Source of the DNA: Methanomassiliicoccales archaeon
GTDB taxonomy: Archaea; Thermoplasmatota; Thermoplasmata; GCA-020350865
Assembly (NCBI GenBank): GCA_020347705.1
Contig: CP070739.1
Location: forward strand, 2,739,174-2,784,040
Direction: 5' to 3'
Length of the DNA: 44,867 nt
The first letter of the stretch is position 1, and each line of letters begins with the position of its first letter. The notes beneath the pieces were generated by a model. The model saw nothing but the letters and a program-made list of their open reading frames with translations, was not told the origin of the DNA and ran no database searches. Shown here in pieces: positions 12,197 through 27,334 of the stretch. The translations under genes were made by a program, and so were the position numbers.

Positions 12197-13018
12197 ATGA
12201 GATCCCAATCGGAAATAAAAAGATACGGGAAAATCGTGATCTTCGAGCATTGGCTCGGGATTTTGATAATTTTCATTTTAATGATCACCGGGTTATTCTT
12301 GGTAAGAGATTGGTTTATTTCAGAGTTTCAAATTTATGGTGCAGAAAATTATATTCCCACCCCATCATTCGCCCGTTCTTTTCATCTTTTTGCCGCATTT
12401 GGAATCCTTGTTTTGGGCGCAATACATCTGATGGCCCATGGGGGACAGAAGGAAAAGCCAATCCTGCCAAAAAACTCCATGGTAGAGCTAAAGGCGGGAT
12501 TATATTCCCTAATGTACCTTATCTTTTTAACTAAGAAGCAAGAGAGGGGAAGTGGAGAAAAATATCTTAAGAGCCAGAGAATCATCTATGCATTTACCAT
12601 TTACGTATTAGGGCTTGCAGCCATTACCGGATTCTTATATAAAAGCAATTTACTTGGAGAGCAGATGTTAATCGCCCACATAATTGCCGGGGTTCTTGTT
12701 TTACTGGTGGGGATTCATCGTTCCGCTCTTATTATCAGAAAAAGGGACAAGATAGCCTTAAGAAGCATTCTTGTCACGGGCACAATGCCTGAATGGTATA
12801 TAAAGAAGAATCACAGGGCTTGGTACGATGCATTAAAAGGTAGAGGTGTTACAGAACATAAAGAACCAAAAGGGCCAAAGGGCGGGATTAAGGAGCCCAA
12901 GAAAAAAGAACCTGAGAAAGTTGGAAAACCCAAGGAAGAAGGTAAAAAAACTGAGAAAGGAGAAATAGTAACCAATGAAAAACCTGTTCCCAGATCGCCA
13001 AAGCCCTCAGATAGCTGA
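12197..13018 (+). CDS. b-type cytochrome membrane subunit (FdnI / Ni-Fe hydrogenase cytochrome b-like)
   Basis: 273 aa, starting 21 nt after the cytochrome c stop. Four TM helices carry His at positions typical of di-heme b subunits: IFEHWLG in TM1, SFHLF...AIHLMAH in TM2, and IAHIIAG...GIHR in TM4. The C-terminal tail is rich in Lys, Glu and Pro. Confidence 0.65.
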   Translation: MRSQSEIKRYGKIVIFEHWLGILIIFILMITGLFLVRDWFISEFQIYGAENYIPTPSFARSFHLFAAFGILVLGAIHLMAHGGQKEKPILPKNSMVELKAGLYSLMYLIFLTKKQERGSGEKYLKSQRIIYAFTIYVLGLAAITGFLYKSNLLGEQMLIAHIIAGVLVLLVGIHRSALIIRKRDKIALRSILVTGTMPEWYIKKNHRAWYDALKGRGVTEHKEPKGPKGGIKEPKKKEPEKVGKPKEEGKKTEKGEIVTNEKPVPRSPKPSDS

Positions 13019-13076: not shown

Positions 13077-14162
13077 TCACCCACTTCCATGAGGCTGAAC
13101 TTCGAAAACCACGAAGGTGAATATTCCCATGAGGCAGTAGCATAATGCCAAAACTCCAATTGACAGCTTTGGATTTGGGGCCATCTCGGCCCTTTTCATG
13201 GCGAATTTACTCCAGCCAAATAGCTTTTTAAAATATTTGCTTCTCATTATCTGTGCTCTGTTAATATACATTGGAATGAACCACAATAAGAGCACAATGA
13301 AAGATACATTATCTGCGTTCGTCATATCAAATGCTTCGGGATTCCAGATGGCAGGAAAACCTGTCCAGGCCTTGTTCCACCCATAGAACATCCCTGCGAC
13401 CCACATTCCAATTGGCACAGAAGCTAAAAAAAACACGATAAAGGTGACGATCACCAATAAAAAGAGCAAAAGGGGTGGATTAAACAATCGCTCCATAAAG
13501 GAGGTAAAACCTTTTGGACTCTTAGATGTAATCCTCGTAAAAATAAATGCACCTGCGACAAGGCCTGTAATTAGAAACAGAAAGACGGAAGCAACCATTA
13601 AGGCAATATGGACCTTGAAGACAGGGGATTCTAAAACTGCTGCGACATTGGGAGGAGGTCCTCCACCGCCCATACTTTCGGTATAGGTGTAAGTGACATC
13701 CAAGTTCCAGCTGTTACCTGGATCCGCTTCCTCCTGTGTCACCAAACCGATGGGTCCTACTGGGACATTTGTAGGTCCTGCGGACTCGCATGTCGACACC
13801 ACATTCCAGGTGTTGTTCAGCATATCTTCCTCCCAGGAAACTGATATCTTACCGCTCGCACCCTGGTCGCTTTTTAGTTCATGCTCGCCGTCGTCTGTGG
13901 CAAGGCTGAAGGAGTCAGGTTCTGAATCCGAGCCTTCGTCGTCCTCCCATGTTAACTCGAATACGATATTGGTTAAAGAGACCTCTCCGAGGTTAACTTC
14001 CTTTTCCCAGGATGCTCCAACATCGCAATATCCATTGAAGGAAATAGTCTTCGTCTGCTCCTCTCCATCGCCGTGCGGGGGCTGTGCAGTTACACTGAGA
14101 TTCCCAATGGTTATCATTATAGTAATGATGAATATCGTAGCAATTTTGACTTTTTTTACCAT
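13077..14162 (-). CDS. Membrane protein: signal peptide, acidic extracellular domain, 4-TM module with a Trp-rich external loop (function unknown)
   Basis: 361 aa. The N-terminal signal/anchor is MVKKVKIATIFIITIMITIGNLSV. A roughly 150-aa acidic domain follows, then a GGGGPPP linker and four hydrophobic helices. The loop reads GWNKAWTGFPAIWNPEAF. Confidence 0.6.
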   Translation of the reverse strand: MVKKVKIATIFIITIMITIGNLSVTAQPPHGDGEEQTKTISFNGYCDVGASWEKEVNLGEVSLTNIVFELTWEDDEGSDSEPDSFSLATDDGEHELKSDQGASGKISVSWEEDMLNNTWNVVSTCESAGPTNVPVGPIGLVTQEEADPGNSWNLDVTYTYTESMGGGGPPPNVAAVLESPVFKVHIALMVASVFLFLITGLVAGAFIFTRITSKSPKGFTSFMERLFNPPLLLFLLVIVTFIVFFLASVPIGMWVAGMFYGWNKAWTGFPAIWNPEAFDMTNADNVSFIVLLLWFIPMYINRAQIMRSKYFKKLFGWSKFAMKRAEMAPNPKLSIGVLALCYCLMGIFTFVVFEVQPHGSG

Positions 14163-14294
14163 CTTATCATCAGGAATTTGATGTATCCTTTACTATCTTA
14201 TAAATCTTTCATTTAGCGGTTGATTTATTAGAAAACGCAAAATATAAGTAAACAGAGACTATACTTTCTCGGGTTAATAATGGAGGGACAGAAC

Positions 14295-22731: not shown

Positions 22732-23250
22732 ATGATTAAACCTAGGAAAATCAAGGAAAAATGCGAACTGGCTAAACGCTGGGAGGGACTGGATTTGGAT
22801 CTTCTTCCCATCGATAAATTGGACGTGAGCATACTCTGCATACTTCGTGATAATTCGAGAACGAGCAATGCCGAGATAGCTAGGATGTTGGATACCAGCG
22901 AGGCCACGATTAGACGAAGGATCAAAGGAATGATAGACAAGGGCATCATAGCAGGATTCTCCTCGTTCATCGACTACTCACTCATAGAAAATCCTGTGAA
23001 GGCCTACATTCATCTCAAGGTCAGGACAGAGAAAATGAAAACCGTGGTGGATAAGATCAAGTCACATGAGATGCTGTTGGCATTGTATCGGGTCACCGGT
23101 GAATACGATCTGCTCTGTGTGACGCTTTTTACCTCCATGAACGGACTGCATGAGTTCATCGATTATTTTTTAGAAATCGACGGCGTAATTGAAACGAACT
23201 CGCAGATCGTGATGAAAGCCCATAAGGGTGTCCCTTGGACCGGGATATGA
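22732..23250 (+). CDS. Lrp/AsnC-family transcriptional regulator
   Basis: 172 aa. The HTH segment is LDVSILCILRDNSRTSNAEIARMLDTSEATIRRRIKGMIDKGII. The ligand-domain motif is YRVTGEYDLLCV. Confidence 0.8.
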   Translation: MIKPRKIKEKCELAKRWEGLDLDLLPIDKLDVSILCILRDNSRTSNAEIARMLDTSEATIRRRIKGMIDKGIIAGFSSFIDYSLIENPVKAYIHLKVRTEKMKTVVDKIKSHEMLLALYRVTGEYDLLCVTLFTSMNGLHEFIDYFLEIDGVIETNSQIVMKAHKGVPWTGI

Positions 23251-26297: not shown

Positions 26298-26846
26298 ATG
26301 AAAAAGAAAAGCAAAAAGAAAAGATCATCCGAGGAGACAAAAGAAAAACTAAAAACGGAAAAGAATATCCCGCCGCTGTTCTCGGAATTACTGGATCAGC
26401 CCCCTATCGACAAGACTGATATGAGTTTGCTGCAGCTTTTACAAAAAAATGCCAGAATGACAAATATCGAGATTGCTGAAAAATTGAACACAAGCGAGGC
26501 CACAGTAAGAAGAAGAATCAACAACTTGATGGACAGAGGATATATACGGTCCTTTGCAGCTCTTTTAGACTATAAAAGAATGGGTAATGCTGTAAAGGCC
26601 AATGTGCTCGCTAAAGTGGAAAAGGATAATCTAGAAAGGGTAGCCAACTCCCTTAAAAAATCCAAAAATGTGCATATGCTTTGTCAGGTGATCGGGGATT
26701 ACAACCTTTTCTGTGAGCTGATTTTTAACAATATACTTGAACTCCAGGAATTCACCGATAAACTCTCCAATAATCCCGATGTGGAAAAGATGGATTATTA
26801 TATCGTCACAAAATCGTTCAAGTCGTGCCCTTGGTCAGGATTATAA
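26298..26846 (+). CDS. Lrp/AsnC-family transcriptional regulator with a Lys-rich N-terminal extension
   Basis: 182 aa. Paralogue of 22732..23250: IDKTDMSLLQLLQKNARMTNIEIAEKLNTSEATVRRRINNLMDRGYI, QVIGDYNLFCE, and a shared C-terminal K(G/S)xPW(T/S)G(I/L). Confidence 0.8.
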   Translation: MKKKSKKKRSSEETKEKLKTEKNIPPLFSELLDQPPIDKTDMSLLQLLQKNARMTNIEIAEKLNTSEATVRRRINNLMDRGYIRSFAALLDYKRMGNAVKANVLAKVEKDNLERVANSLKKSKNVHMLCQVIGDYNLFCELIFNNILELQEFTDKLSNNPDVEKMDYYIVTKSFKSCPWSGL

Positions 26847-26851
26847 GAAGC

Positions 26852-27334
26852 TCAATACTTCGAGGGGCAGCCCACCTGAATCGGATGATTTGATCTGAAC
26901 GTTAAAACACCATCAACATTTTCGAGCTTTCCTTTTACCACCACGTCCTTACCCTCCTCAAATCCGTCGGGTAAGGCCTTTTCGTGGACCACGAACATTT
27001 CAACTGATTCATTGTCTCTACCGACAAGAGTAAAGTTTTGACCACCGGTCCAGTTGCCCACCTTTCCGATAACCTCAACCTCTTTTCCTATATAAGAATC
27101 ACTATTTTCAACAACCTCTTCCATTGTCAAATAATCTCCAGGGGCGGCACCCCAAAGGACAATTATCAATGCCACAGAAATGATTGCCACAACGATCAAC
27201 ACCTTGTTTCTTTTGGAGGAAAGACCTTTTCGCTTCTTCTTCGATTTGGGTTCATCCAATGATTCCGATGAAGAGTCAATTTCGTTTCCTTTATCATCAG
27301 CATTTTCTTCTATTGTTTCATCACTTTCGCTCAT
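26852..27334 (-). CDS. ccmE: Cytochrome c maturation heme chaperone CcmE, CxxxY variant
   Basis: 160 aa. A single TM anchor precedes an OB-fold-like segment (VEVIGKVGNW...FTLVGRD...VVVKGKL). The C-terminus is VGCPSKY, that is Cys-x3-Tyr in place of the bacterial His-x3-Tyr. Confidence 0.8.
   Translation of the reverse strand: MSESDETIEENADDKGNEIDSSSESLDEPKSKKKRKGLSSKRNKVLIVVAIISVALIIVLWGAAPGDYLTMEEVVENSDSYIGKEVEVIGKVGNWTGGQNFTLVGRDNESVEMFVVHEKALPDGFEEGKDVVVKGKLENVDGVLTFRSNHPIQVGCPSKY

Follow-up and report, generated by a model that had tools for sequence, protein, structure and literature searches.

The locus and the protein

The stretch of DNA analysed here, which we call the window, is 44,867 nucleotides long and belongs to an uncultured sediment archaeon of the Thermoplasmata (Methanomassiliicoccales archaeon, assembly GCA_020347705.1, contig CP070739.1, positions 2,739,174 to 2,784,040). 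It encodes, on its reverse strand and near several cytochrome genes, a protein of 361 amino acids (aa), labelled P0001, whose open reading frame (ORF) spans 13077..14162. We present evidence that this protein is probably a distant relative of the heme-handling proteins (HHPs) of cytochrome c biogenesis, and that its homologues recurrently neighbour the ccm genes of cytochrome c maturation. Coordinates are collected in Table 1.

The gene converges with a pair of cytochrome genes, the second of which, for a cytochrome b, ends at 13018 and leaves a gap of 58 bp; its start lies 117 bp from a divergent gene for an FAD oxidase. The TATA-like box of Table 1 suggests, as far as the nucleotide sequence can tell, that in this genome the gene is served by a promoter of its own. 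A first-pass annotation of the same stretch had described the ORF and its distance to the cytochrome pair, together with a signal peptide, an acidic ectodomain, four transmembrane helices (TMs) and an outward loop: the ORF list and the translation agree with the former, and charge distribution, hydropathy and an AlphaFold2 (AF2) model with the latter.

The AF2 model of the whole protein (mean pLDDT 82.8) consists of a beta-sandwich and four helices, at the residues listed in Table 1; the model of the TM domain reaches pLDDT 86.5 and pTM 0.82. The N-terminal signal peptide could possibly be an uncleaved anchor instead. Residues 27-180 hold 30 Asp and Glu against 4 Lys and Arg, and a short Gly/Pro linker leads from the sandwich to His185, so that the sandwich is tethered about 20 residues ahead of this histidine. 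The two presumed cytoplasmic loops hold 4 and 9 Lys and Arg, with a single Asp or Glu each: by the positive-inside rule, the ectodomain, His185, the loop 257-285 and His358 are thus outside, and both histidines stand in the places, and on the side, that the first-pass annotation had assigned to them (FKVHIAL and VQPHGSG). The protein has four histidines in all (30, 94, 185 and 358); none is in TM2 to TM4, so that it has no pair of TM histidines (TM-His).

The core common to the three solved classes of HHPs consists of four core TMs, a Trp-rich domain named WWD and two histidines: P-His1, where a core TM reaches the outer face, and P-His2, in the loop that follows the last of the core TMs (PMC10663686). 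The layout of P0001 is that of this core, with nothing else in the membrane: four TMs, His185 as candidate P-His1, a WWD-like loop, and His358 as candidate P-His2. The Trp loop lies between core TM2 and TM3 and faces outward, its residues W262, W266 and W273 are conserved, and it appears to be a degenerate WWD-like domain. Its segment GMFYGW..WNPEAF (residues 257-278) occupies nucleotides 13329-13394, a few bases away from the 13332-13403 first proposed; the resemblance to the WWD of CcsA, CcmC and CcmF that had been pointed out holds for the place of the loop and its conserved Trp, and less well for the motif, which has degenerated and carries a 5-residue insertion.

Table 1. Features of the P0001 gene and protein, followed by neighbouring genes, in the window
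Feature	Position	Strand	Evidence
Whole P0001 gene, 361 aa and stop	13077..14162	-	ORF list, translation; ~45 homologous clusters at 36-72% identity
TATA-like box TTTATAA, ~39 nt upstream of the ATG	14198..14204	-	Read from the sequence
Putative signal peptide, residues 1-26: K-rich n-region, hydrophobic core, conserved A-Q cleavage-like site	14085..14162	-	Sequence, alignment
Acidic beta-sandwich ectodomain, residues 35-161, motif TW-DDEGSDS-PD	13680..14060	-	AF2 model, ten strands
Core TM1, residues 180-212, out to in	13527..13625	-	AF2 helix, hydropathy
His185, candidate P-His1, outer end of core TM1	13608..13610	-	Alignment, hhalign pairing
Core TM2, residues 230-260, in to out	13383..13475	-	AF2 helix, hydropathy
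Outward Trp-rich loop, residues 257-285, YGW-x3-W-TGFP-x2-W-N-P-E ... TNADN	13308..13394	-	Conservation, hhalign
Core TM3, residues 283-300, out to in, no His	13263..13316	-	AF2 helix, sequence
Basic cytoplasmic loop, residues 301-334, three short helices	13161..13262	-	9 K+R against 1 D+E; high conservation
Core TM4, residues 335-355, in to out	13098..13160	-	AF2 helix, hydropathy
His358 in the C-terminal VQPHG tail, candidate P-His2 after TM4	13089..13091	-	Alignment; position as published for P-His2 (PMC10663686)
30-heme-motif cytochrome c and cytochrome b, convergent with P0001	9524..13018	+	Motif count, Pfam
Canonical CcmF, 6.3 kb from P0001	20471..22546	+	PF01578, 118 bits
ccmA-B-C-(D)-E operon, 13 kb from P0001	26852..29558	-	Pfam, translations

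A small family with two conserved histidines

The homologous clusters counted in Table 1 come from a search of 5.8 billion proteins, and belong to Thermoplasmata metagenome-assembled genomes (MAGs) and metagenomes; the few that carry a name are all "hypothetical protein" from Thermoplasmata MAGs. A profile of the TM domain, searched against 1.84 billion representatives, finds only about 13 clusters at 50% identity: the family is thus small and restricted to one lineage. It has no Pfam or NCBIfam model, and P0001 itself matches nothing in Pfam at E <= 10 and nothing in NCBIfam. One extra match of the profile search, P0058, is a repeat-protein false positive.

Conservation was read from alignments of 21-37 members, down to about 40% identity. 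No substitution occurs at H185, Y260, G261, W266, P270 or D284, and at least 90% of the homologues keep W262, W273 and H358, which upholds the conservation of the Trp loop and of the two histidines that the first-pass annotation had proposed to check. These two are the only conserved histidines of the membrane domain: H185 is kept in 21/21 sequences, and H358 is found in every homologue except P0059. The cytoplasmic loop 301-334 is strikingly conserved across the family, and a partner in the cytoplasm may contact the protein there.

The sequence P0059 (297 aa, from a metagenome) is the only distant relative found, with E 4.7e-4. It has the same plan of an anchor, an ectodomain, a His at the start of TM1 – the same H185 – and a loop VPLGMYVA..YG..W.G.P, but neither a WNPE segment nor a C-terminal His. 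This sequence may represent an older branch of the family, or one that does not handle heme.

Similarity to heme-handling proteins

Twenty of 37 members have sub-threshold matches to PF01578 (Cytochrom_C_asm), which is the commonest and the best Pfam match of the family; the next-best membrane families in the same scan reach only E 0.0045-0.02. The best of these matches has E 1.6e-5 and 25.1 bits, compared to a gathering cut-off of 29.9. They always cover the same region, residues ~173-267 against profile positions 59-154, and stop at W262-W266, where WWD begins in the profile. Position arithmetic based on the matches of the CcmC and CcmF encoded in the window indicates that the matched region starts at P-His1 and takes in the first half of WWD.

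The structural comparisons point to the same proteins. Among 48,161 PDB representatives, the model of the TM domain ranks CcsBA first (7s9z_A, chain positions 749-893, Z 11.3 over 143 residues with a root-mean-square deviation of 3.9) and CcmF second (6zmq_A, Z 9.3); it aligns with Z 8.7 to residues 45-191 of Escherichia coli CcmC (7f02_C), a segment that we take to contain both P-His residues. A search with the model of the whole protein has CcsBA, CcmF and CcmC among its best matches. In the ESM Atlas, both the Atlas's own model and the AF2 model return PF01578 clusters first, with TM-scores of 0.56 and 0.58, and a search by features gave no usable match. A tetraspanin that came up when the family profile was run against the sequences of PDB chains is a chance match, with E 0.17.

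Profile alignments computed with hhalign are weak in their statistics but make biological sense; they pair H185 with P-His1 of the CcmC and CcmF of the clade, and place the Trp loop on the WWD of CcmF through the 5-residue insertion. Taken together, these results make it quite probable that the TM domain of P0001 is remotely homologous to the HHPs CcmC, CcmF and CcsA, and the remote likeness to PF01578 proteins suspected in the first-pass annotation reappears in sub-threshold matches, in the top structures and in the Atlas clusters. The protein falls within the structural definition of the core of the HHP superfamily and, by score, outside PF01578. It is also outside the CcmC, CcmF and CcsA subfamilies, by TM count, by the absence of TM-His, and by model match: none of 36 members has a match at E <= 10 to an NCBIfam model for CcmC, CcmF or CcsA.

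Genomic context

The cytochrome c that neighbours P0001 in the window has 22 CXXCH, 5 CX3CH and 3 CX4CH heme motifs, and the cytochrome b has a weak match to DUF4405. The island of cytochrome genes also contains a GlcD/GlcF-like set, two Lrp/AsnC-type genes and a second multiheme cytochrome, and the CcmE of the window ends in CPSKY, the Cys-type variant of archaea. The sequencing runs listed with this stretch are one DNA run from a sediment metagenome and no RNA run.

The adjacency to the cytochrome c/b pair is real in the window, as first annotated, and is kept only within the genus, in its four carrier genomes, and on the metagenome contig L111, all of them close kin. The linkage that recurs across the family is to ccm genes. 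A scan of all GTDB species genomes yielded six further carriers. In G401 (61% identity), the gene lies between a divergent ccmF and ccmA-B-C-E, in the orientation ccmF<- P0001-> ccmA-B-C-E; in G403 (52% identity) and in contig L112, it closes the series ccmA-B-C-(D)-E-P0001 on one strand; in G404 (43% identity), it precedes ccmA and ccmB (L078:9464-12129), which are followed by an unrelated soluble ORF, without an assembly gap. On a maximum-likelihood tree, these three arrangements belong to three separate subclades, and the linkage is therefore either ancestral or repeatedly selected.

This distribution bears on a rival explanation, in which P0001 would be a permanent redox or anchoring subunit of an extracellular electron-transfer chain: it would hold a stable heme b at its outward His pair, or dock the 30-heme cytochrome, and link the membrane cytochrome b to the outer wire of cytochrome c. 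The pair 58 bp away, kept in four genomes and L111, is what such a subunit would call for, and a protein weakly matching DUF4405, as does the cytochrome b of the window, is found a few genes from the homologues of contigs L034 and L036. Outside one clade, however, the gene has no cytochrome pair close by and is found in ccm operons instead. Within the window, it faces the cytochrome genes and has a putative promoter of its own, and is therefore not part of the cytochrome operon; moreover, the P-side heme of known HHPs is only transient (PMC10663686). We consider a permanent subunit of this kind very unlikely.

Several features of these neighbourhoods deserve a record of their own. The CcmE of the window (26852-27334, reverse strand) has a cytoplasmic N-terminal extension of about 45 residues before its TM, first acidic and then Lys-rich. 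The two Lrp/AsnC-type genes (22732-23250 and 26298-26846, forward strand) flank the second cytochrome within the ccm island; one of them has a weak match to a NirDL-like helix-turn-helix of the siroheme decarboxylase family, and the pair could encode AhbA/AhbB-like proteins of heme synthesis rather than regulators. On L111 (15770-21134), the cluster of the cytochrome pair and the P0001 homologue continues into heme-synthesis genes: two radical SAM proteins, a TP_methylase and HEM4 fusion, a porphobilinogen deaminase and an aminotransferase. The other flank of the cluster has a signal peptidase (Peptidase_S26). The ccmA beside the homologue in G401 (L074:10577-11703) has a frame of 160 aa from its first start codon, compared to about 236 aa elsewhere; the gene may be truncated or frameshifted, or the assembly may be wrong at this point.

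Two metagenome lineages share an alternative neighbourhood (L034:11149-14144 and L036:11144-14107): on the same strand, the homologue is followed by a small parvulin-type peptidyl-prolyl isomerase, then by a BNR-like protein and a membrane protein, of about 436 and 420 aa respectively, and a metallophosphoesterase is found near it, along with the weak DUF4405 match mentioned above.

The ectodomain

In structure, the ectodomain best matches the jelly-roll at the C-terminus of the Tk-SP protease (9ues_B, Z 12.5; 3afg_B, Z 12.4), a domain that presumably binds Ca2+, and next PPC, collagen-binding and GOLD domains; it has no model in Pfam. Thought at first to be unique to P0001, the module turns out to be recurrent in the lineage: paralogous copies in related archaea are fused to MFS transporters, at their C-terminus, to an Rce1-like CAAX protease and to AhpC/TSA-redoxin proteins, and one form is a stand-alone secreted protein of about 195 aa. 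Copies are found in genome G000 (C1:1224131-1224589, 1561280-1561732 and 2983262-2983798) and at loci L014, L020, L026 and L028.

The redoxin fusions combine the ectodomain with a CcmG/TlpA-like domain in proteins of about 590-680 aa: L076:10958-12730 (reverse strand), in G403, L112:11575-13365 (reverse strand), and L013:1246-3276 (forward strand), in G005. The fusion gene and the P0001 homologue converge where the ccmABCE cluster ends in G403 and L112; in the latter, the fusion gene adjoins a copper P-type ATPase gene and HMA genes. Such a protein may be the thiol-reducing arm that is said to be missing from archaeal System I, the cytochrome c maturation pathway of the ccm genes.

We also considered the conserved Cys125 of the ectodomain as a covalent heme ligand, in analogy with the Cys of archaeal CcmE, and rejected it: this residue is absent or shifted in some members, and a second Cys (C46), present in about two-thirds of the aligned homologues, could pair with it.

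Phyletic pattern

CcmC and CcmF occur in 8 of the 10 species genomes that carry a P0001 homologue, compared to 40 of 401 sampled genomes of the class. Within the genus of the window, the four carriers have Ccm proteins, and the one species that lacks the gene in full length (G003, 91% complete) gives no match to PF01578. Since these genomes are kin and not independent, the co-occurrence is supportive only.

The two other carriers, G402 and G404, are MAGs of unknown completeness. The co-occurrence with cytochromes anticipated by the first-pass annotation extends to G404, which has ccmAB and intact multiheme cytochrome genes, and breaks down in G402. In the 3.6-Mb MAG G404, CcmC, CcmE and CcmF were not found anywhere. 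In G402, neither CcmC, CcmE and CcmF nor credible cytochromes were found (there are no real paired CXXCH motifs), and a weak PF01578-like match on its contig C131 lies in a soluble protein and was discarded. It is possible that G402 is mis-binned, since it comes from the same sample as G004.

The combination found in G404, an operon of the P0001 homologue, ccmA and ccmB together with multiheme cytochromes in a MAG where no CcmC, CcmE or CcmF was found, suggests a bolder scenario. P0001 would be a fourth functional class of HHP, a minimal unit sufficient in itself and made of a four-TM channel, a WWD-like loop, a P-His pair and a beta cap, which, with the CcmAB ATPase, would deliver and attach heme without CcmC, CcmE and CcmF; the conserved basic cytoplasmic loop would then couple it to CcmA. 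We hold this scenario to be very improbable.

Comparison with known systems

The protein shares traits with each of the three solved HHPs. Like CcmC, the heme-delivery protein of System I (E. coli CcmABCD, PDB 7F02 and 8CE1), it has no TM-His pair and an outward candidate site, formed in P0001 by a WWD-like loop and the two candidate P-His, and its gene adjoins ccmA, ccmB and ccmE in relatives; the weak hhalign alignment also puts H185 on P-His1 of CcmC. On the other hand, CcmC has 6 TMs, compared to 4 TMs and a signal peptide in P0001, and it has no significant periplasmic domain (PMC10663686), only a short loop where P0001 has a beta-sandwich of about 130 aa. The WWD of P0001 is degenerate, and no NCBIfam model of CcmC recognizes the protein. 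Most carrier genomes have a canonical CcmC: P0001 is therefore an addition, and not the orthologue of CcmC.

The CcsBA or CcsA synthase of System II (Helicobacter hepaticus, PDB 7S9Z) is the best structural match, and the top clusters of the ESM Atlas are of the CcsBA type. The beta-stranded outer domain of P0001, beside its WWD-like loop and candidate P-His, is comparable to the beta cap that the synthase has at its own core (PMC10663686). P0001 differs by the absence of a TM-His pair and of a CcsB part, by its far smaller size, and by its place among System I genes, with no System II genes present. The second-best match, the System I synthase CcmF (Thermus thermophilus, PDB 6ZMQ), has 13-15 TMs, carries a b-heme on its TM-His and passes the PF01578 cut-off, none of which is true of P0001, and the window has its own canonical CcmF besides it.

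Two other comparisons can be drawn. CcmF has dedicated paralogues, NrfE and the CcmF2 of ANME archaea (PMC9012536), and the shared theme is an extra HHP paralogue beside unusual or very large cytochromes. The '8x TMH' protein of ANME and Archaeoglobales (Chadwick et al. 2022, PMC9012536) resembles P0001 in being unannotated, in having a conserved outward Trp, in being encoded near multiheme cytochromes, and in its proposed role in heme handling. Its TM count is different. No relative of P0001 from ANME or Archaeoglobales lineages appeared in the family searches of 5.8 billion proteins and 1.84 billion representatives, and we found no paper describing the family in the literature.

A proposed role

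The reading that we favour, with a probability of roughly 0.6, is that P0001 is a lineage-specific and highly reduced member of the HHP superfamily, an accessory module, synthase-like or heme-presenting, of an archaeal variant of System I. Because the gene lies inside ccm operons in related genomes, the protein is probably a new component of the cytochrome c maturation machinery. Dedicated HHP paralogues for special substrates exist, such as NrfE and CcsA1, and this precedent, together with the cap-like domain, is our reason for proposing a synthase-like or heme-presenting role. In ANME archaea, both CcmF2 paralogues and a Trp-loop membrane protein adjoin giant cytochromes (PMC9012536).

As a model, heme b would be clamped on the outer face under the Trp loop, with H185 and H358 as axial ligands. 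Without a pair of TM-His, it cannot hold a second heme embedded in the membrane; like CcmC, it would have neither a membrane heme nor a role as heme reductase. Its heme would presumably be supplied by the delivery line of CcmABC and CcmE, and such a dependence would explain the place of the gene in ccm operons. Both synthases, CcsBA and CcmF, have a beta-stranded cap directly above the P-heme site, and CcmC has no such domain (PMC10663686); by analogy, the beta-sandwich of P0001 would stand above the heme site, where it may cap the site or dock the substrate. The likely substrates may be the very large cytochromes of the clade, or those with non-standard heme motifs.

Several observations weigh against this reading. 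None of the 37 members reaches the PF01578 cut-off of 29.9 bits. The hhalign alignments, computed with class-derived CcmC and CcmF and then with 80 database CcmCs, yield only P 0.03-0.09, and among 1.84 billion representatives the profile of the TM domain met neither a bona fide HHP nor a bridge to PF01578. Foldseek finds nothing in the PDB at E <= 0.001 for the TM domain and, for the model of the whole protein, matches only the beta-sandwich. Unrelated bundles, such as KCNQ voltage sensors and designed bundles, reach Z ~9, compared to 8.7-11.3 for the HHPs, scores that are moderate at best for a bundle of helices. The canonical WGxxWxWD is not kept, its Asp being replaced by Asn, Gln or Arg besides the insertion, and the ectodomain is a generic module that these archaea share among other proteins. 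No ccm gene lies within 10 kb of the homologues of L034, L036, L038, G402 and G405, several contexts have neither a ccm gene nor a cytochrome within that distance, and G402 is a carrier in which neither ccm genes nor credible cytochromes were found. Finally, published accounts of archaeal System I list CcmABCEF only (PMC4429474, PMC9084895), and these proteins alone are sufficient in Methanosarcina (PMC9084895): an extra component is therefore unneeded in principle.

Much the same facts could be explained if P0001 were not a heme protein but a membrane protein of four helices whose surface domain is generic; it might, for instance, serve exported proteins as a chaperone or docking site, or handle small molecules for them. 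The likeness to HHPs would then be a convergence of folds, and the proximity to ccm genes the effect of a general role at the cell surface. Sub-threshold sequence statistics, helical bundles that score near CcmF and CcmC, an ectodomain that also equips MFS transporters and an Rce1-like protease, the lack of ccm or cytochrome context in G402 and several contigs, and a distant P0059 devoid of the WNPE part and of the C-terminal His would all be expected of such a protein. It would leave four coincidences to account for: three independent structure searches each put HHPs first, the only two conserved histidines are exactly at the positions of P-His1 and P-His2, the Trp loop is at the position of WWD, and linkage to ccmA or ccmE is found in three subclades. 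A non-heme function seems unlikely to us, and we retain the reduced HHP as the favoured reading.

Significance

Three HHPs of cytochrome c biogenesis are known structurally, and a structural review of 2023 distilled their common core (PMC10663686). P0001 appears to be a natural protein made of this common denominator and little else. If this is true, its membrane domain of about 190 residues would offer a small and tractable model of how a WWD/P-His site binds, orients and releases heme.

To our knowledge, archaeal System I lacks CcmH and CcmI, and usually CcmD, and whether non-orthologous parts fill these places is debated. An unannotated gene in the ccmABCE operons of a cytochrome-rich clade of Thermoplasmata is a concrete candidate for a missing part of System I. 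It is also relevant to the way in which uncultured archaea of sediments assemble extracellular wires of 30 hemes, with their many CX3CH and CX4CH sites.

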